From Candidatus Magasanikiibacteriota bacterium (GTDB lineage Bacteria > Patescibacteriota > Patescibacteriia > Magasanikbacterales > GWA2-37-8), in assembly GCA_963802255.1 (NCBI GenBank), contig CAWDHY010000002.1, forward strand, positions 83,984 through 147,983: a DNA stretch of 64,000 bases. The letters run 5' to 3'. Positions 8,534-64,000 of this stretch are shown here, one piece after another. Each line of letters starts with the position of its first letter. Within the stretch, counting starts at the first letter, position 1. The position numbers and the translations under genes were made by a program. The notes beneath the pieces are model-generated. The model did no database searches. It saw nothing but the letters and a program-made list of their open reading frames with translations, and had not been told where the DNA came from.

Positions 8534-8557
8534 TATTATTTTTTATGCTATGATTAT
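8527..8557 (+). promoter_or_regulatory. Candidate sigma70-type promoter for rpmE
   Basis: TTGACA, 16-nt spacer, TATGAT, about 80 nt upstream of the rpmE ATG. Confidence 0.4.
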
Positions 8558-8633
8558 AGCACTTTTAAACATATAAATATAGCATATTTTGACCAAAAAG
8601 TCAATAGTTTCGCTAAAAATACAATAATCTTCT

Positions 8634-8918
8634 ATGAACAAAGATATCCATCCAGAGTTTCATAATGACTGTGTGGTTACCTGCGCCTGCGGGAACACCT
8701 TTAAAACCGGCTCAATATTAAAGGAAATACGTGTAGAACTGTGCAATATGTGCCACCCGTTTTACACCGGAAAACAAAAATTCGTTGATACTGCCCGTCG
8801 GGTGGAAAAATTCCAAGAAAGAGCAGGCAAGCAAACCGCGGCTTCAGCAGAAAGAAAAGGTAAAAAGGTAAAAAAGGCCACTTCTGCGGCAAAAAAGAAA
8901 GCAAAAAAGAACGAATAA
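8634..8918 (+). CDS. rpmE: 50S ribosomal protein L31 (zinc-ribbon form) with a Lys-rich C-terminal extension
   Basis: [27 protein letters not shown]...[12 protein letters not shown] matches L31 with both CxxC pairs. Confidence 0.9.
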
Positions 8919-8925
8919 TCAATAA

Positions 8926-8952
8926 AAACAGGCCAAATTTGGCCTGTTTTCT
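8926..8952 (+). terminator. Rho-independent terminator of rpmE
   Basis: AACAGGCCAAATTTGGCCTGTT hairpin followed by a T-run. Confidence 0.75.
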
Positions 8953-9025
8953 AATATTGACAAATAGCACAAAATGTGCTACGGTTAAGTGCCAATAAAA
9001 ACGTTCATTGACAAAGGAGAAAAAC

Positions 9026-24418: not shown

Positions 24419-24425
24419 ATTAAAA

Positions 24426-24608
24426 TTAATTAATTTTTTCAATTATTTTTGAAATATTCCGCAATTTTGTCTCATCTAAAAAACGAGTTATATCTCGGCG
24501 GATATCCCCTCCTTCATGTGCGAGCGCCAACAACTCACCATCCACTTCATTGATTAAATAGCGCAATCGTTCTAAACGCTCCCGGTATTTTGTATTTTTT
24601 TCCTCCAT
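24426..24608 (-). CDS. Hypothetical 60-aa protein
   Basis: Tightly packed ORF between the giant gene and the 110-aa ORF. Confidence 0.3.
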   Translation of the reverse strand: MEEKNTKYRERLERLRYLINEVDGELLALAHEGGDIRRDITRFLDETKLRNISKIIEKIN

Positions 24609-33746: not shown

Positions 33747-33751
33747 GTATT

Positions 33752-34124
33752 TGTCATTCTGAGCGAAGCGAAGAATCCCTTAACTCCATTCTTCACTCAA
33801 ATCTTTCCACTGTGGATTAACAGTTTTTATCAAATTTGCCTTTTTCATCCTCAACCAGCCCTTTATTGTTTTTTCTCTCGCAATCGCATTATTTATGTCA
33901 GAAAAATATTCATAGTATACTAATCTTTTGCAACCATATTTTTTTGTAAATCCCTCAATCAAACCCTGCTTATGTTCGGAAATGCGTCGTTCCAAATTGT
34001 TGGTGACGCCAACATAAAGCGTACCGGTAGCGCTTGACAAAATGTATACGTAAAAATTGTAATTCCGCATATTTTTACGCAAGGGATCCTTCAGTCGCCC
34101 TTTTAGGACTCCCTCAGGATGACA
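33752..34124. mobile_element. Putative small mobile element: a GIY-YIG nuclease gene bounded by inverted TGTCATYCTGAG...CTCAGGATGACA repeat arms of the same family as the MITE-like repeats elsewhere in the window
   Basis: Left arm 33752..33779 tgtcattctgagcgaagcgaagaatccc abuts the ORF stop. Right arm 34082..34124 agggatccttcagtcgccc...ctccctcaggatgaca is the reverse-complement version, 11 nt upstream of the ORF start. Confidence 0.5.
33780..34070 (-). CDS. Small GIY-YIG nuclease family protein (YhbQ/COG2827-like)
   Basis: MRNYNFYVYILSSATGTLYVGVTNNLERRISEHKQG is a GIY-YIG motif. The start is taken at the internal Met (34070), because the upstream in-frame extension lies inside the repeat arm. 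Confidence 0.7.
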   Translation of the reverse strand: MRNYNFYVYILSSATGTLYVGVTNNLERRISEHKQGLIEGFTKKYGCKRLVYYEYFSDINNAIAREKTIKGWLRMKKANLIKTVNPQWKDLSEEWS

Positions 34125-43598: not shown

Positions 43599-44369
43599 CT
43601 AAGGTGAAACCGTGGCGATTTTAACTTTTCCTTTTGGTGTTTCGCCAACAACCTTCACTTTATCCCCCACATCCAAAAATTTATACAATTTTTCTACGTC
43701 TTTATATGCGATATTTACACATCCGTGGCTCATCGGTCTTATACCAAATTGATTGTGCCAATAAGCGCCATGCAAATAATAACTGCGTTTGAACTCCAGG
43801 TTCCATTTTGTGTTTGGCAAATCATAACCTGGCCCGCGATAATGTACAATCGGGACTTTTCTTAATATATTGAATTCTCCTTTCGGAGTTTCCATACCGG
43901 TTAAACCTGTTGATACCGGTATTGTGCCAATCTTAACTCCGTTTAAATAATAATCCAGCGTCTGTGTTGTCCGGTTTACTTCCGCATAACGCGACACATC
44001 CCTGCTGTTTGGACCGGCGAAAGGATTGTATCCATTTTGGACTTCTTCACCATCAAGATAACCATCATAATCCGTATCGGAATTTGTTAAATCAGACCGT
44101 AGAGCAATTTCCAGATAGTCATTTAAACCATCAGAATCAGTATCAACAGCGGACAGTTTCGCTTTGTTCCCATGTAACGGAGAATATCCGTTTTGTATTT
44201 CCCAGCCGTCAGGATATCCATCTCCATCCGTATCTTTCAAATTCGGATTGGTGTGATATATCATCACTTCATCCTGATCTTTAAGACCGTCAGCGTCAAG
44301 GTCATATGGCGTTGAAGAAACGCTAAAACCAGCCAAAATTGTGGTTGTCGCAATTGTCGCTAAAATCAT
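43599..44369 (-). CDS. L,D-transpeptidase (YkuD domain) with N-terminal thrombospondin type-3-like Ca-binding repeats
   Basis: DxDxDG repeats (DLDADGLKDQDE, DTDGDGYPDGWE, DTDSDGLNDYLE), then C-terminal YkuD with catalytic SHGCVNI. Confidence 0.75.
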   Translation of the reverse strand: MILATIATTTILAGFSVSSTPYDLDADGLKDQDEVMIYHTNPNLKDTDGDGYPDGWEIQNGYSPLHGNKAKLSAVDTDSDGLNDYLEIALRSDLTNSDTDYDGYLDGEEVQNGYNPFAGPNSRDVSRYAEVNRTTQTLDYYLNGVKIGTIPVSTGLTGMETPKGEFNILRKVPIVHYRGPGYDLPNTKWNLEFKRSYYLHGAYWHNQFGIRPMSHGCVNIAYKDVEKLYKFLDVGDKVKVVGETPKGKVKIATVSP

Positions 44370-47233: not shown

Positions 47234-49720
47234 TTAGATCACTATGCTGACCAGTTTTCCTTTTACATAAATTACTTTCTTCGGTTCTCTTCCGTTAAGC
47301 CATTTTTGCACCTTTTCACTTGTCAGAGCCAAATCTTTGGCTTCCGATTCAGATATTTCCGCCGAAACTTCCAAAGTATCACGCAATTTGCCATTAACCT
47401 GTACAGCCAGAGTAATTTCAGAATCTTTTGCCAATTTTTCATCGTATTCCGGCCATTTTTCCAGAGCCAAACAGGATTTACAACCAAGCGTCTGCCAAAT
47501 TTCTTCACACATATGCGGGGCAAAAGGCGATAATATTAAAATCAGCAAACCATAATATTCACCGCTTATTTTTTCTTCCTTTGATATTTCATTTATCAGC
47601 TCCATCATCTTCGCAATCGCGGTATTAAAGCGTAGTGACTCAACATTGTGCGTTACTTTTTTGATAGTTTGATGCATTATCCGTGTCATTCTTTCCGGCA
47701 CCGTATATTCAGAATCAATTTTTTCCTGTAAATGCCAGATACGCTCCAGAAATCTGCGGACACCTTTAACCCCATTAGTGTCCCAGGGCTTATCCGCTTC
47801 AAGTGGCCCCATGAACATCTCATAACAGCGCATTGTATCAGCGCCAAATTCTTCAACCACATCTGTCGGATTTATCACATTACCCCAGCGTTTACTCATT
47901 TTATGATTATCTTCGCCCAAAATCATACCTTGATGGCGATGCTTCAAAAACGGTTCGTCAAAATCAATATAACCGGCGTCAAATAATACTTTTGTAAAAA
48001 ATCGGGCATACAAAAGATGGCTGTTAACATGTTCCGGACCACCCAAATAAAAATCCACGGGCATCCATGTTTTAAGGGATTCAGCGGAAGCAAATGCTTT
48101 GTCATTATGCGGGTCAAGATAGCGATAAAAATACCAGCTGGAACACATAAAAGTGTCCAGTGTATCCGGTTCACGATGCCAGCCTTTACCATATTTTTTC
48201 TCAACGCCCTTGTTAAAACTTTTTGAATAATTTAAAGGCGATTCACCGGTTGGCTTAAAATCAACATCATCGGGTAAAATTACCGGTAAATCTTCTTCCG
48301 GCACCGGATGTAATTCATTTTTATCGTCATAAAGAACCGGAATTGGCGCGCCCCAAAATCGCTGACGTGAAACAGACCAGTCGCGGAGTTTGTATTGGAT
48401 TTTTCGTTTTCCCTTCCCCTCTTTTTCCAGCCAATCAATAATTTTTTTTGATGCCTCTTTGGTAGATAGACCGTTTATGAAACCAGAATTAATTGAGACG
48501 CCTTCGCCGGTAAAACATTTTTTTTCAGCGCCCTCCTGGATTCCCGCCTGCGCGGGAATGACAACTTCTGTAATCTCCAAACCATATTTTTTGGCAAACT
48601 CAAAATCACGCTCATCATGAGCCGGAACGGCCATAATAGCACCAAAGCCATAAGAAGCCAAAACATAGTCGGCGATAAAAACCGAAACTTCTTCATTGTT
48701 GACTGGATTAATAGCCTTAACACCTTTCAGCTCTACGCCGGTCTTATCTTTTTGTGTCTGACGATCAAGGTCGGTTTTTAATTTTGTTTCGTTTATATAT
48801 TTTTCAACTTCATCCCAGTTTTGAATCTTATCTTTCAATTTATCTAACAACTTATGCTCTGGCGCTAAAACCATAAAAGTAGCGCCAAACAAAGTATCCG
48901 GACGGGTGGTAAAAACTTCAATTGTCATCCCCGACCCGGTCGGGGATCCAGAGGGTGACTGGATTCCCGCCGGAGCCTGCCCTCGACTACGATCGGGGGC
49001 GGGAATGACATTAAACGAAACCTCAGCGCCTTCACTGCGCCCGATCCAATCCTTCTGCCGTTTCTTTGTTTCTTCCGGCCAATCCAGTTTATCCAAATCA
49101 TTTATCAGCCGGTCGGCATAATCGGTAATTTTTAAATACCACTGTTCCATTTCGCGCTGTTCAACAATAGTTTCGCAACGCTCACACTTGCCATCTGTGG
49201 TCACTTGCTCATTGGCAAGAACCGTCTTGCATGAATCACACCAATTTACAGACTGTTTTTTTCGGTAGGCCAAACCGCGTTTGTAAAACAAAAGAAAAAA
49301 CCATTGCGTCCATTTATAATAATCCGGATTATGAGAACCGACTTCCCTACCCCAGTCGGCTGAAACTCCGAGCACCTTTATCTGCCGTCTAAACATATCT
49401 ATCGCCTGGTCGGTGCTTTTTCGTGGGTGAACATTAGTTTTAATCGCATAATTTTCCGCCGGCAAACCAAAAGCATCCCAGCCAATCACCTGCAAGACTT
49501 TTTTACCCGTCATACGCTTATAGCGGGCAAAAATATCACAAGCAGTATAAACTTCGGCATGGCCGACATGCAGGCCCGAGCCGGACGGATACGGCAACTG
49601 TGGCAAAATGTAATATTTATCGCCGCGCGAGGCGTCAATTGGCGTTTGGAAGATTTTTTCTTTTTCCCAGCGTTTCTGCCATTTTTTTTCAATTTTCGCC
49701 GGATTGTATGAATTGCCCAT
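47234..49720 (-). CDS. leuS: Leucine--tRNA ligase, carrying two in-frame repeat-derived insertions
   Basis: MGNSYNPAKIEKKWQKRWEKEKIFQ...PYPSGSGLHVGHAEVY...KMSKRWGN. The odd PAPDRSRGQAPAGIQSPSGSPTGSGMT and VIPAQAGIQEG segments correspond to palindromic DNA repeats. Confidence 0.95.
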   Translation of the reverse strand: MGNSYNPAKIEKKWQKRWEKEKIFQTPIDASRGDKYYILPQLPYPSGSGLHVGHAEVYTACDIFARYKRMTGKKVLQVIGWDAFGLPAENYAIKTNVHPRKSTDQAIDMFRRQIKVLGVSADWGREVGSHNPDYYKWTQWFFLLFYKRGLAYRKKQSVNWCDSCKTVLANEQVTTDGKCERCETIVEQREMEQWYLKITDYADRLINDLDKLDWPEETKKRQKDWIGRSEGAEVSFNVIPAPDRSRGQAPAGIQSPSGSPTGSGMTIEVFTTRPDTLFGATFMVLAPEHKLLDKLKDKIQNWDEVEKYINETKLKTDLDRQTQKDKTGVELKGVKAINPVNNEEVSVFIADYVLASYGFGAIMAVPAHDERDFEFAKKYGLEITEVVIPAQAGIQEGAEKKCFTGEGVSINSGFINGLSTKEASKKIIDWLEKEGKGKRKIQYKLRDWSVSRQRFWGAPIPVLYDDKNELHPVPEEDLPVILPDDVDFKPTGESPLNYSKSFNKGVEKKYGKGWHREPDTLDTFMCSSWYFYRYLDPHNDKAFASAESLKTWMPVDFYLGGPEHVNSHLLYARFFTKVLFDAGYIDFDEPFLKHRHQGMILGEDNHKMSKRWGNVINPTDVVEEFGADTMRCYEMFMGPLEADKPWDTNGVKGVRRFLERIWHLQEKIDSEYTVPERMTRIMHQTIKKVTHNVESLRFNTAIAKMMELINEISKEEKISGEYYGLLILILSPFAPHMCEEIWQTLGCKSCLALEKWPEYDEKLAKDSEITLAVQVNGKLRDTLEVSAEISESEAKDLALTSEKVQKWLNGREPKKVIYVKGKLVSIVI
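48538..48563. repeat. Partial palindromic repeat (one TGTCATTCCC terminus plus the ATTCCCGC/GCGGGAAT palindrome) in-frame in leuS
   Basis: ggattcccgcctgcgcgggaatgaca. Encodes VIPAQAGIQ on the coding strand. Confidence 0.5.
48923..49010. repeat. MITE-like 88-bp palindromic element with TGTCATYCC/GGRATGACA termini, inserted in-frame in leuS
   Basis: tgtcatccccgacccggtcggggatcc...ggattcccgccggagcctgccctcgactacgatcgggggcgggaatgaca. Contains two internal sub-palindromes. Encodes a segment of about 27 aa where E. coli LeuS has about 7 aa. Confidence 0.6.
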
Positions 49721-49776: not shown

Positions 49777-49813
49777 ATAAAAAACCCGCCAGAGGTCAAG
49801 CGACATGGCGGGT
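49777..49813 (-). terminator. Terminator hairpin within the 3' flank conserved between the two DUF1566-like genes
   Basis: ACCCGCCA...TGGCGGGT stem with a T-run on the minus transcript. Near-identical copy at 63223..63259. Confidence 0.6.
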
Positions 49814-49895
49814 AAATGAACGAATGTAGATTAAAGAGCGGATGTTGAGGCAGGGCTATATTTTCCCTCATGAATATGAGGGATGGCGACGGTTC

Positions 49896-51329
49896 TTACA
49901 GATCGCGGACGCAGCGGATGTAATACGATTCATACTCGATATCCCAGCACTGTTCGCTCACAGAACTGAATTCGAGGGACAGATAGCCGTCGGTGCAACT
50001 ATCCGAAGACCAGTAAAAATATTCGCAACTGCCGCCCATGGCCGGTGACCAGTAACAACCACCTGCACCAGGGCCCTCTCCCGATTCGCACGGGGGATCG
50101 TCGCAACCAGTAACGAGCTGGTACAGCTCAGAAAGAGCCGGCATCCTCCAGTCGTCATGACCACCGAGCAACAAGGTGTCGGCGCAATAGGTCTGAACAG
50201 CGGCCCAGGTGTAAGTTCCGTCAGGAGGCGTCAACTGCCACCCCAAGCCGTTCACCGAATCGATGTACATACCCGCTCCGACGGATGCGTCGTAGGGGGC
50301 TTCGTCCTCACAGGGCGCAGTCGGAACGGTGCAGTCGGCGGTGTTGGCGACGTCGTCGCCGTTAGCATCATTCGGGACGCCATCACCGTCGATATCGTCA
50401 TCCAATGCATTCGGCGTACCATCGCCGTCCATGTCGGCCGCCTGGTTAGCATCAGGCAAATCCGTTTCTTCGCCGGTCTTGCTCTCCAAGTAGTCGGCCA
50501 GATTCTGCACACAGTCAGCGATGGGATCCAGGGCGGCTTCGCCGTTTCTGAGGTACTGCTTGTATTCGGCGCTGATCACACCACTGGTCTGAAGTTGGCT
50601 TCTGATATCGTTGACAAGCTCCTGAAGCCGGGCATCGACTTCGTTGACATCGGCCGCTCTCAATTCAGCTGCCTTGCCAATGATGCAGCTGACCGCCATG
50701 ATGTACTGGTTGTCAGGGCTATCGACGCCGGTCAGATCCATTTCAGTGCCGTGTCCTACTAGGCCCCCAAGCGGGTGTTGAATGCCGAGTTCCTCGAACA
50801 AAGCGTCCTCGGACGCGGCGACCGCTTCGGCTACCACGGTGTAGGTGCCTTCGCGGAAGTCCTTTAGAGCGAGACCGGACGACATGTGAGTGAAGACGTT
50901 GAGATACGCCTCCTGCGGGTCGCCACCGATGATCTCGTAAAGAGCCCGCAGAGTGATGGGTGCGCCGGACAAACTGTCAGTGATCTCGTTGTAGTAAAAA
51001 CCTTCACCGATGAGTTCACACGGACCGGATGTCGCCGCCACCACATTGAACGCGCCAAGCTCGTCTTCGGTGGTCGTGGCGTAGTTGTCACCGGTCGGAG
51101 CACCAGCAGAGTCGAGCATGGAGACAGTCAGTGAGCTCCCCTGAATGAGGGGCCCCTTCTGCATGGCTCCGGTCAAAGTGACGGAGCCGGAATTGTTGTT
51201 GTCTCCATTTCCACCATTGTCATCATCACAGGAAACGCTCAACATGGCGAGACACGCCAACATCGCGAACAAATACTTCAACATTTTTCTACCTCGCTTG
51301 CGGGTTTTTGTAACCCGTTGGTTTACCAA
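49896..51329 (-). CDS. High-GC lipoprotein with thrombospondin type-3-like Ca-binding repeats and a C-terminal DUF1566-like (CLec-fold) domain
   Basis: Signal peptide plus lipobox (LSVSC). DMDGDGTPNALDDDIDGDGVPNDANGDD repeats. GHDDWRMPALSELYQLV and a terminal ...YYIRCVRDL resemble the DUF1566/Lcl-like domain. GC about 58% against about 40% elsewhere. Confidence 0.6.
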   Translation of the reverse strand: MVNQRVTKTRKRGRKMLKYLFAMLACLAMLSVSCDDDNGGNGDNNNSGSVTLTGAMQKGPLIQGSSLTVSMLDSAGAPTGDNYATTTEDELGAFNVVAATSGPCELIGEGFYYNEITDSLSGAPITLRALYEIIGGDPQEAYLNVFTHMSSGLALKDFREGTYTVVAEAVAASEDALFEELGIQHPLGGLVGHGTEMDLTGVDSPDNQYIMAVSCIIGKAAELRAADVNEVDARLQELVNDIRSQLQTSGVISAEYKQYLRNGEAALDPIADCVQNLADYLESKTGEETDLPDANQAADMDGDGTPNALDDDIDGDGVPNDANGDDVANTADCTVPTAPCEDEAPYDASVGAGMYIDSVNGLGWQLTPPDGTYTWAAVQTYCADTLLLGGHDDWRMPALSELYQLVTGCDDPPCESGEGPGAGGCYWSPAMGGSCEYFYWSSDSCTDGYLSLEFSSVSEQCWDIEYESYYIRCVRDL

Positions 51330-51396
51330 ACTCTATGAAAAAGTTTGGTTTTTGTTTTTTGCCTCAATCTTATTATATTGTAAAGGACGAACTAGT

Positions 51397-51489
51397 TGTC
51401 ATCCTGAATAAAATGAAAAATCTGTAATCTGTGATCCCGCATTCGCGTGAATGACAAGTAAAAAGATTCTTCGCTTTGTCCAGAATGTC
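51397..51489. repeat. Intergenic cluster of MITE-like repeat copies (one element with TGTCATCC...GAATGACA termini plus a degenerate family-A arm)
   Basis: tgtcatcctgaataaaatg...gatcccgcattcgcgtgaatgaca, then agattcttcgctttgtccagaatgtca. Confidence 0.45.
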
Positions 51490-51632
51490 AAGTATTTATG
51501 GAACTAATTCATCAATTCTATTAACTAACGATTGTACCAATTGTCACAATATAAAACGGATGAACTACTTATAATATACCTCTTTTATGGCTTTTGTCAA
51601 GAGTGTAACCCAATATTTCATCATATCTTAGC

Positions 51633-51657
51633 CAAAAACGCTCCGTAAATACGGAGC
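51633..51657 (-). terminator. Terminator of the giant surface-protein gene
   Basis: GCTCCGTA-AAT-ACGGAGC hairpin overlapping the TAG stop, with a T-run on the minus transcript. Confidence 0.6.
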
Positions 51658-54600
51658 GCTAATCGATCGCTGGCGGTGTTTCAGCTGGAGGAGTTTCAGG
51701 AGCGGGTTCAGGTGGCGGTGTTTCAGCTGGAGGAGTTTCAGGAGCGGGTTCAGGTGGCGGTGTTTCAATTACTGGTTCAACAACCGGTTCCGTTTCTTCC
51801 GGTTCAATAATTGGTTCATCGACCACCGGATCGGATGGTTCCGGATCATCTGAAGGAGAAAGAGGAGCCGTCACTCCACCATCTCCTCCAGTTGATTCCG
51901 GTATCGTTACCGGAATATCTGAACTAACTAAATCATTACTTATTTTACGTTTGGCGATCACCATCCAGTCAAACGATGCATTTGATGTACCGCCGTCTAA
52001 CTCTTTCACTTTAAAACCTTGTGCCGTCTTTTCAATCACCGCTACACCTTTTGCTTCAATGGAAGTCAAAGTAACACTGACTTTTATCGGAGCAGATTCA
52101 TCAATAATTTCCTGTGTGTCCGTGGCAAAAGTAATTATTGCTTCACCCATCTCTAAGACACCAGCTCCAGAAAGCGTAATCTCAGCCAATTCTGATGCCA
52201 TGCCATAAATATTTTTTTCACCCTGGCTGGTCGTCACTCTTGCGATAAGCAAACCATTTTCATCAATAGACCAGCTGTTATTTTTACCAATAATTTTTAA
52301 AACATTTAATATCGCATTTCCGGCTAAATCTAAAGCTCCGGTACCGGAATATGAAATAGTTCCTCCGCTCGCGCCAACACTTAAATCACCCGGATCAGTA
52401 CCAATATCAATACCTGTTTCAGCGGCAATAATCTGCACCTGTTGTTCCAGTTTTGCCGCTGCTTCTGTCTTGTTGTATACCCAACCCGTACGAATTAAGG
52501 TAATAATTTTTCCATCTGTAGAAACACCGGAATTTTCAAGCGCGATACCAATAATACCCACAACTTTTCGTGAATTGTCCACTTTTGGATCATATTTCAT
52601 CGCCTTTCCCGGTTCTGAAGCGGATACGAGCAAATCACCGCGCGATATTTCTCCATTTTCTAGAGAATATTTAACCGGCACCCGTCCAACCATTGCGAGC
52701 GGAGCTGTCTGGTCTGTTTTTCCATTGCCCACGATAATAGTTGGATTGGTTGAAATAACACCGGCCACTGTCGGCTCATAAGCAATGTTTGATTTTTGAT
52801 ATCTGTCCGCAGATGTCGGGTCTACCATCATCACATCACCGGCTTCAACTATTTCAGCCGGATTAATATCCACTTTTTCCGCCAAATCTCCAGGATTAGT
52901 GGAAGTACCAAGCACTGCGGATGCGGCATACATATTTCCGGCGCTGTGGACATCGCCATTTGCTGATACTGAAAAGACAGGATTGTTATTTGAGCGGAGA
53001 GATAAAATATAATTATCAGCCGTTGAAGTGTTAAAATTCAAAGCGTTGAAGATGAATGCGCGGGTGCCGGGGGTCGAGATGACTGAAGATTCAAAGATGG
53101 TGGAGGTAGAGAAAGAAAGCTTGTGGCCGGAAACAGCGCTCTCGGCTGTGGCCAGGAAATTAACATCACCGGTCAGATTGAGAGTATATGGTTCGGAGGC
53201 GGAACCGATGGTGAGCGACTGAGTTGAGGTAACGACATCAAAAGCCGTGTCCAGAGGTTCAATTATGTTTTGCTGGGCTTTAGCGACTTCGGTGAGGAAA
53301 CCGACATAATGGTCGTAATCTAAAGTAAGATACGGGTGCTCTTCATCACCTGATTGAGTAACTAGCTCGGGTAATACAGCTTGAACTTCCTGAGCAATCA
53401 TACCAACTTGACGCGATGTCGTCGCCGATTCATAACCCGGCTTGGAAGTGTCCCAGAAATAATATACACCGCGCAAACTCTTTAAAGCTTCGAGTACATC
53501 AAGAGAACCGGAAATGTCAGTAACATCCGTCTTAACCTCCTCGTCGGAATTTGTACAAGTAGTACCTGAGTAGAGCAAGCCGGCAGTACTAATACAAATA
53601 TAGTAGGCATTGGCTTTCTCTTTCCAATAGTATACATCGGCATTAATGTTACCAAGATAAATATCGTAAGTTGTTGATGCAACTGCATTACCCCCAATAG
53701 CAGTAGAGTATAAAGCATTTGCAGAGGTGTTATACCCAAGTGCTAAAGTATAGTTCGCGTTTGCATCAGAATCATAACCAACTGCAATAGCGTCGATTCC
53801 ATTCGCATAAGCGGCGTACCCTAACGCCAACGAATTGAGCCCCAGCGCACTGGCGCCATTACCGATCGCCGTGGCGTAGTCATCATCCACTTGAGCATCC
53901 GTACCTACTGCGGTAGCACCATTAACCTCTATACCAGTATCAACACTATACCCGATTAATACATTATTATCGGTTGAGGTTACATGGCTACCGACGCCAG
54001 TACCAATGGCAACGTTATATGCACCGCTATCATTATTTAATATTGCATCAGCACCTAAGGCGATATTGCCCGTCGCCAAGGAACCATATCTCATTGCCCT
54101 CGCTCCAATCAAAGTATTTGAAGTTCCTGTAAGTTCATAACCTGCTTCATTTCCTAGGGCGGTATTATTATTACCAGTTGTATTAGTATACAAAGCACTA
54201 TAACCAATAGCGGTGTTGGCATTGCCGACAGTAATTTGATAACCTGAGCGATAACCCAACGAATTATTTTTCTCGCCTGAACGAAGGTTCGCCATAGCAT
54301 CCATGCCAATGCCTACCGTATTCGCCATCCCAAAGTTCGTATTAGTTAACGCATTACGCCCAATTGCAATATTACCGTCAGTGGACGTGACACCGAATAG
54401 TGCCATGTAACCTATACCGATATTATTATTGCCGCTAATATTCGAAGTCAAAGAGTAGTTCCCCAATGCGACATTGTAATCACCGCTTGTATTTGCGTCC
54501 AACGTTCCATAACCTATAGCGGTGTTTTCCATTCCATTAGTGTTCGACATTAAAGCCGAGCCTCCGACAGCGGTGCTCATTAACCCCGTAGTATTATCGC

Positions 54601-56299
54601 GAAGCGACCAAAACCCAACAGCTGTGTTAAATAATCCGGTAGTATTAGCATTTAATGAACGATAACCAACTGCGGTATTAGAAGCGGCGGTGTTGTTCTG
54701 CAGGGCTTCATACCCAACTGCCACGTTGGCATAAGAAGACGTGTTGTTCAATAGAGACCTGCCCCCCAACGCTACATTATACGAACCGGTTATATTATCG
54801 CGTAAAGCGGCGCGGCCAAGGGCGGCGTTGTCAGCGCCCGTAGTATTGTAAGGCATGGTGCCATAACCGACAGCGGTATTGCTATCTCCCGTGACTGACG
54901 CTAAAGCCGCGGCTCCAAGAGCGGTATTATAATTGCCCGTAGCAGTAATCATGGCCGAAGCTCCGACGGCAGTATTTGCATTACCAGTGCTATTTAGAGA
55001 AAGCGCTTCAGAACCAAATGCGGAATTGGCGACACCGGTGGTGTTGCCGCGCATGGCTTTGTAACCGACTGCCGCGCTGGAAGTACCGGTGGTGTTGCTG
55101 TACAACGACTCATAACCGACGGCAGTGTTAGAAGCGGCAGTGTTAAACATCAACGCAGAATAACCGATGCCCACATTCCCCCAATTGGTTGTGAGTGTTG
55201 CCAACGCTCCAACACCGACTCCAACGTTTCTTGAGCCACTCGTTAAACCATATAACGAACCTATACCCACATTTTCATTGCCGCTGGTATTAAGATAAAG
55301 TGAATTATAACCAAAAGCAATATTAGAATTGCCGGTAGTATTTGCTGTTAACGCATTTGTACCGACCGCAGTATTCCAGCTCGCGGCGTATCCGGTATTG
55401 CTATACAAAGCTTTGGACCCAACAGCTACATTACCAACTCCTTCATCATTGGCGTATAATGCTTGATAACCAAGCGCGGTATTATTCATTCCTCTGCCTG
55501 ACAGCAAATTCACTTTATTATTATATAATGCTTGATAACCGACGGCGGTTGAAGAAGGACCGACTTCATTAAAAAGCGCTTGATAACCGACTGCGACATT
55601 GGCATTATGGTCAGATGAAGTGCCGATAGCCAAAGCGTTATAGCCCAAAGCAACATTAAAAGAACCATACAAATTACTATAAAGCGCATAATTTCCTAAA
55701 GCAATATTACTACTCCCTGTAATATTTTGAGGAAGCGTAGTGTCGCCTATTGCCGTATTTCCTTGCCCAGTGGTATTGGAATAAAGCGTCGTGTTACCTA
55801 TGGCAGTATTAGCTAAGCCAAGTGTATTTGAATACAATGCTGTATAACCAACTGCAGTATTGTTAAGACCAACGGTATTGGAATATAACGATCGATAACC
55901 AACTGCAACATTTCTTAAGCCCCCCATACCGCCAATTAAAGAATTAAAGCCATAATAATTATTCGCCAGAGCTTCGTAACCTATCGCCGTGTTTGAAGCC
56001 GCAGTATTTGAATACAAAGCGCCATAGCCGATAGCAACATTGGCCGGACTGCTTGTATTCGCGGTTAAAGATTTGTAACCAAAAGCGGTGTTGTAATACC
56101 CGCTTGTATTATTATATGCGGCGCTTACACCAAAAGCCGAATTACCATAACCGCTTGTATTATTCAATAAAGCTAGATAACCACTCGCGGTATTATTACC
56201 CCCAGTCATTGTTAAATTGCCGGAATTACCCACGAAATAATTATTTAGCGAGGTGGAAGCCATGGCAAAATTAACGTTGTTATATTTATAATAGGCCTC

Positions 56300-58000
56300 G
56301 GCCGATATATTTATACTTCCTTTTATGTCTACCTTATTAAGCGGGGTGGTGGTGCCGATGCCAACAAAGTCACCAATGCTGGTCAATCTCACCACCGAAC
56401 CGTCATCAGTCCAGCCACCAGATGTTGATATGGTAGAAGAATTTACCCAAGTCGGAGCAGCGGAAACGCCATTTGACATCAATACGTATCCAGCGGTACC
56501 CGCATCATAATTATTCCCCACTCTGATTGTACCCGTTACTGCCAAACTACCAGCGACAGATAAGTTAAACGCCGGAGTGGTGGTACCGATACCAACATTA
56601 CCACCGTTAAAATAAGAATTACCGTTGGCATTTAAATATATTTTTTCATCTGCATTACTATACATAGATAACAAACCCACTGTTGCGCCACTGGCATTTG
56701 TATGGTGGAGTTTAATAGCAATTCTATTATCATCCGTTCCGCTTAATAATATACCATCACCGCCGCTTGCCGATAAAACATGTAATTTGCTTGCTGGTGT
56801 GGTGGTACCAATGCCGACGTTACCGCCGTTAAAATATGACGCACCGGAACCGGCAACTTTAATATTTTCCGTGACACCTCCATATAATGATAGATAACCG
56901 ATGTTGCCGCTGGCGCCATTATAATACATTTTTGCCGCCACGTTGCTATTTCCGCTCAATAATATGCCATCGTTATCGCTGGTGACATTTACCTGTAATT
57001 TATTTGATGGAGTGGTCGTACCGATACCAACATTGCCACCAGTGAAATATGAATCACCTAAAGCGGTAATTACTGTTCTTGTAGCATTGGCCTCATATAA
57101 ATTCAGGCTACCTGCTGAGTTTACAGCGCTGGAATTTATCCAATTCAACTTGGCAACGAGTTGATCATAGCGCCCACTTAAAAAAATACCGTCATATTGC
57201 GTGTCTGTAAGAACATGTAACTTAGCTGCCGGAGTTGTCGTACCGATACCAACATTGCCACCATTAAAATATGACACACCTGAACCGGCAACTTTAACAT
57301 TTTCCGTGACGCCTCCATATAATGATAGATAACCGATATTGCCACTGGAACCATTATAATACATTTTTGCCGCCACGTTGCTATTTCCGCTCAATAATAT
57401 GCCATCGTTATCGCTAGTAACATTTACCTGTAATTTATTTGATGGGGTGGTCGTGCCGATACCAAAAACACTACTTACAAACGAACTACCTGTTGAACGC
57501 CCGGTCAATCGCACACTCTCAACACTGTTTTCAAAAACACTCATTCCACCAAATTCTAGACCGAGACCGGAATTATAGGAATTGCCTAATACAACATTCG
57601 GCGTGCCAGTTGGACTTAAAAGCACCACTCCATCACTCGCCGCTGCTTGTATCATTAATTTGTATGCCGGAGTTGTCGTACCAATACCAACATTGCCACC
57701 ATTAAAATATGACACACCTGAACCGGCAACTTTAACATTTTCTACGCCGCCTCCATATAATGATAGATAACCGATATTGCCGCTGGCGCCATTAAAATAC
57801 ATTTTTGCCGCCACATTGCTATTTCCGCTCAATAATATGCCATCGTTATCGCTGGTGACATTTACCTGTAATTTATTTGATGGAGTGGTCGTGCCGATAC
57901 CAACGCTATCAGTAATTGTCGTCAATCTCACCACCGTTCCATCATCTGTCCATCCGCCGGCTGAAGCGATTCCTAAAGAAGATGTAGCGATCCAAGTAAA
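56300..58000. repeat. Near-identical tandem repeats of about 400-435 bp inside the giant CDS
   Basis: The antisense ORFs at 56943, 57378 and 57777 begin with the identical peptide MLFPLNNMPSLSLVTFTCNLFDGVVVPIPTLPP. This reflects repeated GGNVGIGTTTP... coding modules on the sense strand. Confidence 0.6.
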
Positions 58001-61000
58001 ATTACTGCCGTTATAGGTTAACACATTTCCAACGGCTGATGGGGCGCTACTTGAAGCCAGATCAACCGGTGCAATTGAATTATTAATTATTTCACTTGAT
58101 CCAACCGCATTAGCGGATATGGTTAAAGCACCAGTGTTGGATATTGTTGCGTCACTGCTCATAGAAACAGCGGTTGCAACACCCGAGGCATTCCCAACCC
58201 AGATATATGCAGAGGCAAGAGCCGTGCTCATTAAACCGAGTGTTGAGGTGGAAACCCATGTTGGGGCACCGGCGGCATTTGACCTTAAAATCTGGCCGGA
58301 TGTGCCAACAGCGGTCGCCATATAAGATGTACCATTGGAATATGTTACTGAACCGGCTGCACCGATAGTTGAAGAGTTGGTACCGCCGCGTACGATAGGC
58401 AGAATCCCGGATGTAATTTGGCTGGCGGCAATAGCGATAGTATTTGTAGTAATAGAAGTAACGCGACCATAAGTATCAACTGTGATGTTCGGAGTGGTGG
58501 AAACTGAACCGTATGTTGATGCAGTGACGCCGGATGTAGCAAGACCAACAGTTGTAGCTGATGAACCATTATAGGAAAAAGTGGCAATGCCAGTACCTTG
58601 CGAAAGCGTGGCGTGAGTATGTGTAGAAGTGGAAAAAGTTGTTGAAGCAACCCAGGTGAATTGCGAATCTGAATTATACGCAAGCAAAGCCTGGTACGTC
58701 GGAGCGGTATTAGTCGCAGTTTTAAGCGGGGTGACTTTGCCGATGCCGATAGTTGGATTTGGATAGGTACCGGTCAGGTCTCCACCGGCAGCACCGGAGG
58801 CGGTGATGCCAAGAGTGGTGGTGTTGACCCACGACAAACCCGAACCGGTTGTCTGTAATATCTGACCATTACTTCCGGCACTGCCATTCGTTCGTAAAGC
58901 ACCGGTTAAGTTAGTGTCACCGGAAACAGTCAGTGGGTAACCTGGGGTCGTTGTATTAACGCCAACCTTTCCTCCCATAAGCGCAATCGTGTTGACTTGA
59001 GAAATTGTCGGATTATTCGTAGTACTGACATTCACTCCAAAAGAATAATTGCCACTGACAGTAAATGAGTTGCCAATAGCAACAGAGTTATAACCACTGG
59101 AAGTGACTGATTTGCCGATGGCATATGATTCATTGGTAACGACAGAGTTTCTACCAATAGCAACGGCGCCATAACCGCCGTAACCGGAAACAGTATTTTG
59201 ATAACCGATGGCCATGGAACTTTCTGAACCAGAAGCAATAATATTATCACGGCCAAGAACGACTGAATGATCACTATTTATCGTGTTATTATAACCAAAA
59301 ACCGAAGAATAATTACTGCCAACCGTATTATTTCTTCCTGATATTATTGAATACTGTCCGGTTGATGTATTGTATGCTCCGAAAATTGCTGTATATAACG
59401 CGCCGGAATTTACATTGTTATCACCAGCAGTAAACGCGTAATTTCCGCCGGAATTAATATTGTTGGAACCGAATACGGCTGAAAAACTACCACTTGAATC
59501 ATTGTCAGAACCTGCTACAAATGACGCCTGTCCGCTTGATGTGCTGTTATTGCCAATCGCAACGCTGGACAGACCAGTTGCTCTGGCATTATTACCGATA
59601 GCCGTAGCATAACTGTTTGAAGATTGCGCCTGATAACCTATGGCAACTGAATTAAGATTTTCCGCTGACGCAAGATTGCCAATCGCGATTGAATTATTAC
59701 TATAAGAATGAGCACCTGAACCCATGGCAATAGAACTGTAGCCGGATGCTATCGGAGAAGAACCGCCAATAGCTACAGCTAAATCATTTGTCGCCGCTGC
59801 TAAACTTCCCATGGCAATCGAATTCGTTCCTGTGGCCTGACTATTTAACCCCTGGACAAAGGATCCCGGCCCTAACGAAAAAGTATAGTTGTCGCCTACT
59901 GACAACGAACCAAGCGCGTTATCCCAAACAAGGGTATTTGTAGCATCAAAAAATCCGTCTGTATAAAATTGTATTTGTCCGTTTGCTCCGGCCGGTGAAG
60001 AAGTTGTATCTGTATCAGTGTCTACAAAACCAAGAGAAGATGTGGAAGACCAAGATAATATCCCACTTCCATTATTTAGTAAGACAGTATTAACATCGCC
60101 TTGAGTATCTGGCCAAAGATAAGGTATGCTCTTAATTCTTGTAATGTCGCCATCATCATCGACCCGGAATTGTTGTGACTCGCCGACATTTAATAACCCC
60201 GTTCCTGAATACGATGTCGTACCAATATTTAAACCGGGTAATATTGCCGATTTAGTCCATGCGGAAATAAATACTGTCGGTGCCACAGAGTTATTATATA
60301 AAGCTAAAAAGCCTGAGTGGTTACTGCCTATATTATAATGACCTAAAAATGTTGTTGGAGTTCCTCCCCCGGCAATAGATATTCCATCAAACAATCCGGC
60401 GCCAACAGTAGAATCAATAGTAAGTTTTGTTACAGGCGATGTAGTGTTAATTCCTACATTACCACCCATGAGAGCAATAATATTATTACCGGAAATTGTT
60501 GCCGGCGCTGTACTCGTGGCGTTAATGCCAAAAGAATAATTTCCACTAACTGTCATGTCATAACCAAAAGCTACAGAGCCGATTCCACTCACTGTATTAT
60601 TGTATCCGCCACCTATAAACGAGCCCCCGTTCGCACCACTAATATCATTGTAAGTTCCACCTCCAATAAACGAATTGGCCGCAAAGCCGCCGGTTGTATT
60701 AAATTGCCCGCCACCAATAAACGAATAATTCCCGGTTGCCGAATTTGAGTAGCCACCACCGATAAAACTATGATGGCTATCTATATTGTTGCTCTCGCCG
60801 GTGATAAAAGAATTTGAACCGCTATATGTATTGTTATAAATATTATTTGAGCTGCCAAAAACTCCGCTATTTTGTCCCGCGATGGTATTGTTGTAACCAA
60901 AAACATGAGAATAATCTGCCGTGACGGTATTGCTACCGCCCAAAGCGCTGGAATATGTTGAGGTGACATTGTTGAATCCACCGGCAACTAATACTGACTG

Positions 61001-61212
61001 CGCGGAATCAGTTAGATGATTGTTTGAACCAAAAACCGCGTTATATTGAGCGCTGGGGCTTAACAGTGAAGAACCAATGGTATTACCAAGACCTGTGATG
61101 ATTGAATAATATGCAGATGAAGTGTTCACCGCTCCGAACACCGCATTACCGGAACCGGCATCTTTATTTGATTCACCAGCAATAAAAGATGTGTAACCTG
61201 ATGCTAAATTAT

Positions 61213-63051
<1,839 letters not shown>

Positions 63052-63222: not shown

Positions 63223-63259
63223 AAAAAAACCCGCCAGAGGTTGGTGAAACATGGCGGGT
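63223..63259 (-). terminator. Terminator hairpin in the conserved 3' flank of the second DUF1566-like gene
   Basis: ACCCGCCAGAGG...CATGGCGGGT with a T-run on the minus transcript. About 75 nt nearly identical to 49780..49856. Confidence 0.6.
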
Positions 63260-63301
63260 AAACGAATGAATCTAGATTAAGGAGCGGGATTTGAGGCAGG
63301 G

Positions 63302-64000
63302 TTAAAGCATGGTGCGGACGCAGCGGATCGACGCCGATGCGACAGCATCGGCCTCATCTGTCCATACCGGGTAACCACCGTTGAAGGTGACAAGCCAAAT
63401 GTAGCCTGTGGTCGTTGACGAAGACCAGTTGCCTCCGGTGCATGTGCCGCTCAGAACCGGATTGAAGTAGCAGCCACCTGGTCCGGGGCCGTCAAATAGC
63501 GTGCAATGCGTACAAGCGCTGTCGCAAGTTGTTTCCAGACAAGCGTCACTCACTTCGCAGGCGCCATCCGGCACTTCGTTATCCGGACAACCACTGATGA
63601 TGGTCCGGTATTCCCAGACACTCGGCAAACGCCAATCGTCATAGCCGCCGAAATCGAGGTCTTCACAGAATGTCTGCGCATCTTCCCAGTTGTATGAACT
63701 GGCTGGCGGCTGAACCTGCCAGGCCAATCCATTCGCGTAGTCGAAGAACATGCCGGCACCGACACTGTTGTCGTAAGGCGACTCGTCCTCGCATGGGGCG
63801 GTGGGAACAGTACAGTCGGCAGTGTTGAGTACTCCGTCGCCGTTGTCGTCGTTTGGCACGCCATCGCCGTCAATGTCGTCATCGTAGGCGTTGACGAACC
63901 CGTCACCATCGTTGTCCGCCGCCTGATTGGCATCGGGCAGATCGGGGGCGTATCCCATCTTGGATTCAAGATAATCCTGGAGGTTGGACACACAGTCTTC
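63302..64000 (-). CDS. High-GC DUF1566-like / Tsp3-repeat lipoprotein paralog. Partial: the N-terminus lies beyond the window
   Basis: DNDGDGFVNAYDDDIDGDGVPNDDNGDG repeats. YDDWRLPSVWEYRTII and a terminal ...ASIRCVRTML, paralogous to 49896..51329. GC about 58%. Confidence 0.6.
   Translation of the reverse strand, partial: EDCVSNLQDYLESKMGYAPDLPDANQAADNDGDGFVNAYDDDIDGDGVPNDDNGDGVLNTADCTVPTAPCEDESPYDNSVGAGMFFDYANGLAWQVQPPASSYNWEDAQTFCEDLDFGGYDDWRLPSVWEYRTIISGCPDNEVPDGACEVSDACLETTCDSACTHCTLFDGPGPGGCYFNPVLSGTCTGGNWSSSTTTGYIWLVTFNGGYPVWTDEADAVASASIRCVRTML

Follow-up and report, generated by a model that had tools for sequence, protein, structure and literature searches.

The window, a 64,000-nt stretch of DNA, contains two paralogous genes, copy A and copy B, on either side of a fibre-like giant gene. 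Both are on the minus strand, so the direct orientation around the giant gene that was described in the earlier note holds. The genes are as follows.

49896..51284, minus strand: copy A, predicted lipoprotein gene of 462 aa, stop codon included (translation, Pfam, alignment, composition)
51659..61312, minus strand: fibre-like giant ORF, 3217 aa (Pfam)
61213..63051, minus strand: collagen-like ORF, 612 aa (Pfam)
63302..64000, minus strand: copy B, paralogue, C-terminal 232 aa with the TSP3-like linker and the Lcl_C head (translation, Pfam)

The gene order in the window is B, the 612-aa ORF, the giant gene, A, leuS, and comEC, and copy A is the gene immediately downstream of the giant ORF. The 5' part of copy B lies beyond the window end (63302..>64000). 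Pfam matches in the giant gene region are Collagen, YadA_head, and Peptidase_S74. The 612-aa and 3217-aa ORFs (51659..63051) are probably one gene broken by a frameshift; their counterparts are fused in L003.

The GC content of copy A is 57.2% with a GC3 of 0.67 (over 49899..51284), and that of copy B is 57.5% with a GC3 of 0.65 (over 63305..64000, clipped by the window end). For comparison, the GC content is 42.2% for the whole window, 42.6% for leuS (GC3 0.41), and 44.1% for the giant gene. The GC3 of the giant gene and the collagen-like ORF is 0.36-0.38, slightly lower than that of leuS. Protein alignment of A with B gives 53% identity over 232 aa (E 2e-71), and the global DNA alignment of the two genes, flank included, shows a mean column identity of 74%. 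The description of A and B as a paralogous pair of about 58% GC in a low-GC genome is therefore correct. The divergence between A and B includes indels up to 22 codons. The last ~100 codons are the most divergent stretch, with conserved sequence on both sides.

The protein of copy A consists of a signal peptide with the lipobox Cys19, an N-terminal module (N-module), a TSP3-like linker, and an Lcl_C (DUF1566) head, in this order.

50460..51179, minus strand: N-module of A, aa 36-275, with a beta-sandwich and then a helical bundle (AF2 model)
50310..50453, minus strand: TSP3-like Ca-binding linker of A, DMDGDGTPNALDDDIDGDGVPND... (motifs in translation, alignment)
49905..50270, minus strand: Lcl_C/DUF1566 head of A, putative ligand-binding lectin-like domain ending in IRCVRDL (PF07603)

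PF07603 Lcl_C, formerly DUF1566, has a gathering cut-off of 34.9 bits. It matches copy A with 47.0 bits (E 3.8e-12, aa 339-460) and copy B with 59.1 bits (E 6.6e-16), in agreement with the DUF1566-like assignment made before for both genes. Small neighbour genes in L001 and L002 also score above the cut-off. The heads are Cys-rich, and they are the most divergent part of the family, with indels. The last 40 residues of the copy A head are modelled at low confidence with AF2. The FNGGY-like motif, which had been ascribed to both genes, is present in B but not in A.

The N-module has no Pfam family and constitutes the conserved base of the protein. Between family members, the N-module is 52-91% identical, versus 37-55% for the head (81% in the closest pair). 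The AF2 pLDDT of copy A is mostly >90 over roughly aa 31-280. Foldseek against PDB found no solved relative of the N-module at E<1e-3; the best match, which falls short of this threshold, was the PgcA non-haem domain (E 2.4e-3), besides generic transthyretin-like sandwiches. In the linker motif DxDxDGxxNxxDxDIDGDG, the D/G/N columns are invariant in the 15-sequence family alignment. The TSP3-type repeats proposed earlier for both genes are thus visible by eye, but Pfam TSP_3/TSP3_bac does not match A or B at E<=0.1. PF02412 matches N-module relatives with the same linker.

The start of copy A is most likely the ATG at 51284 (MLKYLFAMLACLAMLSVSC...), rather than the TTG at 51329 chosen in the earlier note. 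The signal MLKYLFAMLACLAMLSVSC has a hydrophobic leader, and the lipobox Cys19 is invariant in 15 homologues. Judged from this leader and the invariant Cys, A and B are predicted to be membrane-anchored lipoproteins, as had been proposed. A lipobox-like pattern is found by regular expression in 77 of 144 N-module relatives.

The host is a bacterium of the Patescibacteria (CPR), with a small genome of the symbiont type. LeuS encoded in the window is 79% identical to that of a "Patescibacteria group bacterium" MAG and 67% identical to that of a Magasanikbacteria MAG. On the 770-kb contig of a relative, the order is giant gene, small Lcl_C gene, Lcl_C lipoprotein gene, 624-aa ORF, and 187-aa ORF, followed by a second giant gene, small Lcl_C gene, Lcl_C lipoprotein gene, leuS, and comEC. 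The order of a giant gene and then one or more Lcl_C genes is repeated in both L001 and L002. The bracketing of the giant gene by A and B, described in the earlier note, is not an arrangement of element termini: each copy belongs to a tandemly repeated module, in which it follows a giant fibre gene on the downstream side. What lies between the giant gene and leuS differs between genomes: in L011 it is an RCC1 lipoprotein gene of 58% GC, and in L026 a gene for a lipoprotein with the N-module and RCC1. Family genes are missing beside leuS in L012 and L013, and another gene takes that place in L011. A GC-elevated lipoprotein gene is found beside leuS even in CPR genomes with LeuS identities down to 52% (L026, L011, L113).

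The flanking elements of A and B are as follows.

51573..51600, minus strand: promoter-like site for A, TTGACA-16-TATATT, 11/12 positions (promoter scan)
49865..49882, minus strand: hairpin 1 in the 3' UTR of A, CCCTCAT-ATTC-ATGAGGG (fold)
49779..49858, minus strand: shared 3' UTR block of A, in which a spacer of ~40 conserved nt (CCCTGCCTCAA..GCTCTTTAATC..TTCATTT) precedes a predicted intrinsic terminator (repeat search)
49803..49786, minus strand: scan match for the copy A terminator, ACCCGCCA...TGGCGGGT and a T run (terminator consensus scan)
63224..63301, minus strand: shared 3' UTR block and predicted terminator of B (alignment, repeat family, motif)

The 38 nt around the promoter-like site of A are 84% identical to the region upstream of L003 P0002, and the same TTGACA...TATATTATAAG sequence is present upstream of L010 P0004.

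The 3' flanks of A and B are nearly identical with the same hairpin, as the earlier note reported; ~80 nt are shared, ending in the terminator. Positions 49803-49858 and 63249-63304 are 86% identical over 56 nt, and another 18 nt are identical. The shared flank begins 41 nt past the stop in A, behind hairpin 1, and immediately past the stop in B. The motif TTTACCCGCCATGT-N(5-9)-ACCTCTGGCGGGTTTTTT, which folds as a GC-rich hairpin with a T run after it, occurs exactly twice in the window, against 0 expected from 100 shuffles. Downstream of both genes, ACCCGCCA..TGGCGGGT is followed by T6-7. The UTR block of A shows an MFE of -30.7 kcal/mol (z -3.6) and that of B an MFE of -14.5 kcal/mol (z -2.3). 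The terminator scan misses copy B because its loop exceeds the limit of the scan. Judged from the stem and the T run, the conserved hairpin downstream of A and B is a rho-independent (intrinsic) terminator. Hairpin 1 has a 7-bp stem and a 4-nt loop, 16 nt past the stop of copy A, and is missing from B. The same hairpin stands after L001_small and L010_P0004; in the version after L001_P0007, one base pair has changed in a compensatory way.

Near-identical UTRs are found on adjacent genes within L001 (both genes) and within L002 (both genes). A second, dissimilar UTR type serves other family members. Rfam and tRNA scans gave no match, which leaves the 3' UTR outside the known RNA families. The single match of the UTR motif in IMG/VR is an unrelated phage terminator.

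Comparisons between related loci revealed abrupt changes in sequence identity. When L010 is compared with L001, identity per 100 nt is mostly 78-99% in leuS and the intergenic DNA (a single 100-nt segment there, with a 45-nt gap, scores 49%), versus mostly 47-68% in the lipoprotein coding region, with 19-35% at gaps. The switch is at the 3' UTR. L003_P0002 and L010_P0004 are 88-97% identical in the promoter and 73-93% to about codon 300, or ~86% for promoter and N-module together, versus 37-60% in the head. The drop is at the TSP3-like linker, and the 3' UTR is of the other type. P0016 has the most distant N-module (36% identity overall), and yet its head is among the nearest to that of A. Within a given gene pair, the head shows 2-5 times the synonymous divergence of the N-module, at a dN/dS of 0.11-0.23 throughout. 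As read from these alignments, whole alleles have been replaced between close relatives, and the head and the 3' UTR have been swapped independently of the promoter and the N-module. On the same reading, the breakpoint zones are the repetitive TSP3 linker (50310..50453 in A) and the 3' UTR. Among the close pairs tested, positive selection on the head was considered and rejected, as their dN/dS is 0.11-0.43.

It is conceivable, though we consider it unlikely, that the 3' flank is conserved by selection and not as a by-product of recombination; it might give rise to a 3'-UTR-derived small RNA, stabilise or localise the RNA, or bind a protein. This reading concerns the flank only and is compatible with the overall explanation given below. 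The ~40-nt unpaired spacer is 85-95% identical between genomes whose heads are <50% identical, every occurrence of the UTR motif in the window and 122 loci follows an Lcl_C gene, and the one compensatory change in hairpin 1, seen among few independent sequences, also points to function. The conserved spacer could have a separate function. Against this stand the lack of a match among Rfam families and the second UTR type, which serves other family members equally well. In L115, the UTRs have diverged from those of L001 despite 93% identity of the coding DNA. Conversion fits this divergence better than strict constraint does.

Family genes in low-GC hosts show a graded GC excess over the host. 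The GC content of the family genes is 56-60% in the window, L003_P0002, L009, L010, and L112, 47-49% in L001, L002, and L115, and 39% in the 33% GC genome of L113. It is 60-63% inside the contigs of 63-66% GC (L007, L120). The GC step is found at the same leuS-adjacent place in independent assemblies, counted as six, with L001, L009, L010, L113, and L115 named. Since the junction recurs in this way, a chimeric contig is ruled out, and misassembly was rejected as the source of the step.

An exhaustive representative search with the N-module found 2322 cluster representatives at E<=1e-3, in which the module is almost always N-terminal; a word-indexed homology search with the N-module alone gave 6 matches only. 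The heads of these relatives include Lcl_C, RCC1, DUF4215, TSP_3, and SBBP. The few relatives that carry names are without exception Myxococcota, Polyangia, "Deltaproteobacteria", or Myxococcales, and this speaks for import from a GC-rich donor. Most of the family shows an amino-acid composition of the GC-rich type. An NJ tree of the N-module, drawn without support values, places A together with its closest CPR relatives as the sister of the GC-rich group, and the NJ tree of the head domain, also without support values, is star-like. The nearest GC-rich homologue is ~51% identical overall and 65% in the N-module. In Myxococcota contigs, the family gene is slightly less GC-rich than its neighbours. 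A metagenome scan with the full-length family alignment returned only unrelated TSP3 proteins because the TSP3 repeat (DxDIDGD) outweighed the rest of the protein in the back-translated patterns.

Deviant composition, patchy distribution, and homologues in a compositionally matching group (60-63% GC) are therefore all observed, as is expected of horizontally transferred genes. The family most likely entered the CPR lineage from GC-rich Myxococcota-type bacteria; the direction is suggested by family size, the few named sequences, and composition. The foreign origin proposed in the earlier note stands, with the GC anomaly reproduced across assemblies and homologues in GC-rich Myxococcota-type genomes. 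The recent acquisition and duplication of a cassette, proposed along with it, is not supported: A and B are only 53% identical, and family members already occupy the two positions in a relative whose LeuS is 77% identical. A GC3 of 0.65-0.75 is kept by all CPR alleles with mutual identities of only 55-62%, which requires slow amelioration or repeated imports.

The same retention of GC3 could also be expected if A and B were old vertical CPR genes whose high GC is maintained from within, by GC-biased gene conversion (gBGC) at a hyper-recombining locus or by codon selection. Frequent recombination at the locus is demonstrable, and the leuS slot holds a GC-elevated lipoprotein gene in genomes with LeuS identity down to 52%. 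Nevertheless, we regard this vertical origin as improbable. The giant gene and the collagen-like ORF are equally variable, but their GC3 is 0.36-0.38. The GC content of the family ranges from 39% to 60%, unrelated to how recombinogenic the locus is. The N-module family is mostly of GC-rich-type composition, with its named members of Myxococcota type. Reported effects of gBGC in bacteria amount to a few percent of GC3, and the excess here, at 25-30 points, is larger. Import from Myxococcota-type bacteria remains the preferred origin.

The earlier note had also raised the possibility that A and B are targets of a diversity-generating retroelement (DGR). They would be remote targets of a DGR outside the window, with the last ~40 codons as the variable region (VR) and the GC-rich end and hairpin as IMH/cruciform. 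DUF1566 proteins are an established class of DGR targets, accounting for about 14% of DGRs, for example the Legionella surface lipoprotein LdtA; non-adjacent targets are found in 45 of 372 surveyed DGRs, and 34% of DGRs have a GC-rich inverted repeat behind the IMH (PMC5758913). Hairpin 1 of copy A, close past the stop, and the position of the most divergent A-B stretch between conserved sequences would fit such an arrangement. Hairpins follow both stops; an IMH, however, is definable only against a template repeat (TR), hairpin 1 is missing from B, and the shared hairpin carries a terminator-type T run.

No reverse transcriptase (RT) was found in the 64-kb window or in ~35 kb of the syntenic relative: among the scanned window ORFs of at least 150 aa there is no match to Pfam RVT families, and none is in the L001 or L002 gene lists. 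For none of 11 family genes was a further, TR-like copy of the final 160 nt found in the window or in any fetched locus, and the sole repeat involving A or B in the window is the A/B pair itself. The statement that the window has neither RT nor template repeat thus proved right within these searches. The adenine-specific C-terminal variation expected of DGR targeting is not seen among natural orthologue variants. The L001 and L115 alleles P0007 and P0039 are 92% identical, and their 108 substitutions (77 transitions, 13 in the last 200 nt) are spread evenly along the gene without A bias. The head dN/dS is 0.11-0.13 with raised dS (0.11 for L001 versus L115), which is purifying. Family gene sequences of orthologues are identical across 4-5 sequencing runs. 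The 22-codon indel between A and B also counts against a DGR because A-to-N mutagenesis makes no indels. It is very improbable that A and B are targets of a DGR located outside the window. The case is a caution for DGR screens: it takes more than a DUF1566 C-terminus and a conserved hairpin behind it to call a DGR target.

An integron (attC) or other site-specific cassette was rejected, as no integrase or recombinase domain is present among the scanned window ORFs, no mobility genes flank the copies, the 3' hairpin is a plain terminator, and the breakpoints are in homologous sequence (TSP3 linker and UTR).

We consider it fairly probable that A and B are horizontally acquired, homologously recombining CPR surface lipoproteins of Myxococcota-type origin, without targeted hypermutation. 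In this explanation, a conserved N-terminal base would be followed by a calcium-binding TSP3-like linker and an exchangeable DUF1566/Lcl_C lectin-like head, and each lipoprotein gene would lie just downstream of a giant fibre-like gene as part of a tandemly repeated module beside leuS. The family would have entered the CPR lineage by transfer from GC-rich Myxococcota-type bacteria, in which the N-module is common with many kinds of heads. Such an origin would explain why the genes have 57% GC and a GC3 of 0.67 when the genome has 42% GC. After entry into the CPR lineage, they would change by homologous recombination, with breakpoints at the TSP3 linker and the 3' UTR. The 3' flank common to A and B would be the family's own 3' UTR with a rho-independent terminator. 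Its similarity between neighbouring copies would reflect local gene conversion, with the UTR at, or serving as, the distal recombination boundary. We infer that the UTR acts as a homology arm. The role of A and B is most likely adhesion to a partner cell or a matrix glycan, considering the domain family.

Attachment to other cells is the way of life of Patescibacteria, and little is known about the proteins that mediate it. The locus gives a concrete candidate adhesin family beside giant fibre genes, in which a calcium-binding linker joins a lectin-like head to a lipoprotein base. Exchange of heads and of whole alleles by recombination between closely related strains is documented at this locus. 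The N-module, with ~2,300 clusters and no Pfam model, merits family definition. A wider reading, which we put forward only as a speculation with a low chance of being right, is that the leuS-adjacent fibre and lipoprotein modules are a dedicated surface-variation locus of Patescibacteria, whose lectin-type heads (Lcl_C, RCC1, and others) are time and again imported from or exchanged with GC-rich Myxococcota-type bacteria and joined to a conserved lipoprotein base via the linker and UTR homology arms. If the donors were physical hosts of the episymbionts, the GC-rich genes would mark a Patescibacteria-Myxococcota partnership.

Compared with known systems, A and B are an ordinary but well-resolved and well-documented example of HGT and mosaic surface-protein evolution, and nothing is overturned by them. 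With LdtA and other "category d" (DUF1566/CLec2) DGR targets, they share the predicted surface lipoprotein nature, the C-terminal DUF1566-type domain ending in ...RCVR, and a hairpin past the stop (PMC5758913). They differ in that no RT, TR, IMH/IMH* pair, or A-to-N pattern was detected and in that their variation consists of recombination and indels under purifying selection.

Myxococcota-type lipoproteins (MCU0661510.1, HEY3357297.1, MBI5488989.1) have the same N-module after the lipobox and the same TSP3 linker, some with an Lcl_C head. They differ in being encoded in genomes of 63-66% GC, in unrelated gene contexts (for example, after a gene for a 1254-aa CarboxypepD_reg/Lcl_C protein), and without the CPR-type 3' UTR.

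Receptor-binding proteins of phage tail fibres and bacterial adhesins are modular and swap domains at conserved linkers. Like these, A and B have a conserved base, an exchangeable distal binding domain, and breakpoints in a repetitive linker. As in tail-fibre systems, the gene is directly downstream of a fibre gene with a Peptidase_S74 chaperone domain. Unlike fibre subunits, A and B are predicted lipoproteins with their own promoter and terminator; the Pfam scan of the window ORFs found no phage genes nearby, and the N-module has no relative in IMG/VR, so nothing points to a phage as vehicle.

The Legionella adhesin Lcl is the prototype of Pfam Lcl_C/DUF1566. Its C-terminal domain is a trimeric head that binds sulphated glycosaminoglycans and has no disulfides (PMC11162425). 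A and B differ from Lcl in being predicted lipoproteins with an unrelated N-module and a TSP3-like linker instead of a collagen stalk, and their heads are Cys-rich in contrast to the disulfide-free domain of Lcl. They share with it the same C-terminal Pfam domain on a surface protein. In addition, a collagen-like protein is encoded beside copy B, and Lcl itself is a collagen-like adhesin.

The two GC-rich lipoprotein genes of the window, copies A and B, are recombination mosaics of probably foreign origin. They lie on the minus strand with a giant fibre-like gene and leuS, and comEC follows leuS in minus-strand reading order.

63302..>64000, minus: copy B, cut by the window end
61213..63051, minus: 612-aa collagen-like ORF
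51659..61312, minus: 3217-aa fibre-like giant ORF
49896..51329, minus: copy A, mechanical ORF
47234..49720, minus: leuS

The most likely start of copy A is the ATG at 51284, giving a predicted 462-aa protein beginning MLKYLFAMLACLAMLSVSC. Its leader Cys is invariant in an alignment of 15 full-length homologues, as expected of the putative lipoprotein. Both copies pass the cut-off (34.9 bits) of Pfam Lcl_C (PF07603, formerly DUF1566), with 47 bits for A and 59 bits for B, and their proteins share 53% identity across the part of B inside the window (232 residues). The GC content is 57.2% in copy A (GC3 0.67) and 57.5% in copy B (GC3 0.65), against 42.2% in the window; leuS and the giant gene have GC3 values of 0.41 and 0.36. 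The earlier description of two GC-rich DUF1566 paralogues is borne out with these small corrections. Of the Tsp3-type repeats described with them, the motifs are visible, but they do not reach Pfam significance. A YkuD L,D-transpeptidase gene (43599-44369, minus) has significant TSP3_bac repeats at host-normal GC, and thus TSP3-type calcium-binding repeats are not restricted to GC-rich genes here.

The remaining genes are ordinary housekeeping genes (rpsB, tsf, gap, uvrABC, groEL, nusA, yidC and others), and no tRNA genes or Rfam families at gathering score were found across positions 1-64000. A 423-aa TTG-start ORF (9008-10279, plus) coincides with a local rise in GC (48.7% at 9-10 kb) and has no Pfam match; the antisense ORFs overlapping it (8701-9267 and 9422-10120, minus) have no significant Pfam match. 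A 1511-aa ORF without Pfam domain (19907-24442, minus) adjoins a 684-aa Beta_propel (PF09826) protein and may be another large surface protein.

The LeuS protein is 79% identical to that of a "Patescibacteria group bacterium" MAG and 67% to that of a Candidatus Magasanikbacteria MAG. Contigs of other assemblies, obtained by exact-protein look-ups of homologues (ENA, JGI, Logan), contain a family member beside or close to leuS with the same kind of GC step: 59% in the family gene and 42.5% in leuS at locus L009, 58% and 41% at L010, 49% and 42% at L001, and 39% and 35% at L113 (contig 33%). The step is thus genuine, and this repetition rules out a chimeric assembly.

A 770-kb contig of a relative, whose LeuS is 77% identical to that of the window, covers two giant gene/lipoprotein modules before leuS. 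The first contains a giant gene, a small Lcl_C gene and an Lcl_C lipoprotein gene, and is followed by ORFs of 624 aa and 187 aa. The second has the same three genes and continues into leuS and comEC. The window is the counterpart of the second half of this order. The repeated order indicates that every lipoprotein gene is paired with a giant fibre-like gene upstream of it; for copy B, this partner is presumably a further giant gene past position 64000. The earlier note saw A and B as bracketing the giant locus after recent acquisition and duplication of a cassette. The repeated order rejects the pair as ends of an inserted element, and an older, tandemly repeated module of fibre and lipoprotein genes replaces the recent cassette.

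The slot between the giant gene and leuS varies among relatives. At L012 and L013 it contains neither an Lcl_C family gene nor an RCC1 lipoprotein gene, and at two other loci it contains the following.

L011 (LeuS 79%), 1179-2681, minus (opposite strand): RCC1-repeat (beta-propeller) lipoprotein, gene 58% GC, contig 45% GC
L026 (LeuS 52%), 7759-9486, minus: lipoprotein with the N-module (the conserved lipoprotein base) and RCC1, gene 44% GC, contig 37% GC

Small lipoproteins (171-214 aa), composed of a leader and the Lcl_C head only, are encoded in relatives downstream of the giant gene, ahead of the full-length lipoprotein gene (L001 9133-9777; L002 9193-9708; L115 799-1443). At this position the window has just 330 nt of non-coding DNA (51330-51658), and L003 has a GC-rich full-length family member instead. 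A REP-like intergenic element (..GTCATTCTGAGCGAAGCGAAGAATC..) forms an inverted pair in the window (33748-33785 and 51457-51494), and one member of the pair sits inside copy A's long 5' leader. At L003, L009 and L010, family genes are flanked by comparable elements and by another palindromic one (CCCTCTCC..GGAGAGGGCTGGGGTGAGG).

In the giant gene (Pfam domains: YadA_head repeats and the Peptidase_S74 chaperone domain), three ~435-nt tandem repeats, 89-93% identical, encode ...KL units (56783-57903). At its 3' end, two perfect 42-nt repeats and a third weaker copy (64% identity) encode a Pro/Glu/Thr-rich tail (51671-51781). The 612-aa and 3217-aa ORFs overlap by 100 nt in different frames (61213-61312, minus), and the homologue of their junction in L003 (5600-5700) is a single continuous ORF. 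The distance between conserved codons there is 17 nt in the window versus 15 nt in L003, indicating a frameshift. The two ORFs are probably one gene of about 3,800 aa; pseudogene formation, phase variation or a faulty assembly could each account for the frameshift.

Named relatives of the family all belong to one broad group (Myxococcota, Polyangia, "Deltaproteobacteria", Myxococcales): MCU0661510.1 from Myxococcota, HEY3357297.1 from Polyangia, and MBI5488989.1 and MBI4511839.1 from "Deltaproteobacteria". The contigs around two homologues have 63-66% GC. In amino-acid composition, the 144 N-module relatives analysed resemble GC-rich proteomes, and in the neighbor-joining tree of the N-module, copy A and its nearest relatives from Patescibacteria (CPR) are sister to the GC-rich group. 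In CPR genomes the GC content of the family ranges from 60% down to 39%, exceeding the host in every case; the spread seems to reflect unequal amelioration, unequal arrival times, or both. No close donor was found, the best GC-rich homologue being 51% identical. The findings are best read as import from a GC-rich, Myxococcota-type pool, and the horizontal transfer proposed earlier is supported by GC excess, relatives and tree.

Family genes change through recombination, by whole-allele replacement and by exchange of the head (the C-terminal Lcl_C domain) at the TSP3-like linker. In a comparison of the close relatives L010 and L001, most 100-nt windows of leuS and of the intergenic DNA next to it are 78-99% identical (49% in one window with a 45-nt gap), whereas the lipoprotein coding regions are mostly 47-68% identical (19-35% where gapped) and differ in GC (58% vs 49%). 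Identity climbs to 73% in the window where the coding sequence gives way to the 3' UTR, stop codon included, and to 95% in the next. Here the whole allele was replaced. Between L003_P0002 and L010_P0004, at different genomic positions, the promoter and 5' UTR are 88-97% identical and the N-module 73-93% until about codon 300; the head drops to 37-60%, and the 3' UTR types differ. The breakpoint falls inside the repetitive TSP3-like linker. In close pairs, synonymous divergence of the head is 2-5 times that of the N-module of the same gene (dS 0.36 vs 0.16; 0.96 vs 0.20), with dN/dS of 0.11-0.23 throughout; the head thus has a different, older history and does not evolve faster at the protein level. 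The N-module and head trees disagree: P0016 has the most distant N-module, yet one of the heads nearest to A.

The near-identical 3' flank with the same terminator hairpin, noticed earlier, is a block of ~80 nt common to A and B. The window contains the core motif of this block, TTTACCCGCCATGT-N(5-9)-ACCTCTGGCGGGTTTTTT, exactly two times, where chance predicts no occurrence. With its GC-rich stem and a T run behind it, the folded core is an intrinsic terminator. In copy A, a further 7-bp hairpin lies after the stop codon, ahead of the block. Family 3' UTRs are of two types, each ending in a CCCGCC...GGCGGG terminator. The window's type recurs in L001 and L010 at 86-95% identity, and among 122 fetched loci its core motif was found only after Lcl_C genes. 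Adjacent UTRs are near-identical for both genes of L001 and both genes of L002, though the heads are 41-46% identical; L115 and its close relative L001 have different UTRs despite 93% identical coding DNA. We read the shared flank as local gene conversion or recombination ending in the UTR. The UTR would serve as the family's own terminator region and as a homology arm, so that its similarity outlives that of the coding sequence. A separate function of its ~40-nt unpaired spacer is conceivable; no Rfam family matches it.

The suspicion that A and B are targets of a remote diversity-generating retroelement (DGR) was reasonable, as DUF1566 proteins, including the lipoprotein LdtA, are a recognised DGR target class, and DGRs with distant targets or with inverted repeats downstream are on record (PMC5758913). 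It is nevertheless very improbable. No reverse transcriptase is present in the window, as noted before, or in the syntenic 35 kb of the relative, and no family C-terminus has a second, template-like copy in the window or the fetched loci. The natural variants P0007 (L001) and P0039 (L115), 92% identical, differ along the whole protein; 77 of the 108 DNA changes are transitions, only 13 lie in the final 200 nt, and adenines are not changed preferentially. The head is under purifying selection, gene sequences are identical across 4-5 sequencing runs, and the A-B difference includes a 22-codon indel. The C-termini are not supported as DGR variable regions.

An AlphaFold2 model of the copy A protein, built from 31 sequences, is confident from about residue 31 to 280 (pLDDT mostly above 90) and shows two parts, a beta-sandwich (35-129) and, after it, a helical bundle (130-270). 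It is poor in the linker and the last 40 residues, and no solved structure matched at E<1e-3. The N-module has no Pfam family; an exhaustive search found 2322 cluster representatives at E<=1e-3, of which 914 remain at E<=1e-10. It is nearly always N-terminal, behind a signal peptide or lipobox, and is followed by Lcl_C, RCC1, DUF4215, TSP_3, SBBP or FG-GAP/VCBS heads. The finding is of some use for defining this uncharacterised family and for CPR attachment biology.

DUF1566 has its prototype at the C-terminus of the Legionella adhesin Lcl, where the domain forms a trimeric head for sulphated glycosaminoglycan binding (PMC11162425). Copies A and B share this C-terminal DUF1566/Lcl_C domain family, and by analogy we infer that they may be adhesins or lectins. 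Horizontally acquired surface adhesins and modular domain swapping are known kinds, of which A and B are a further member.
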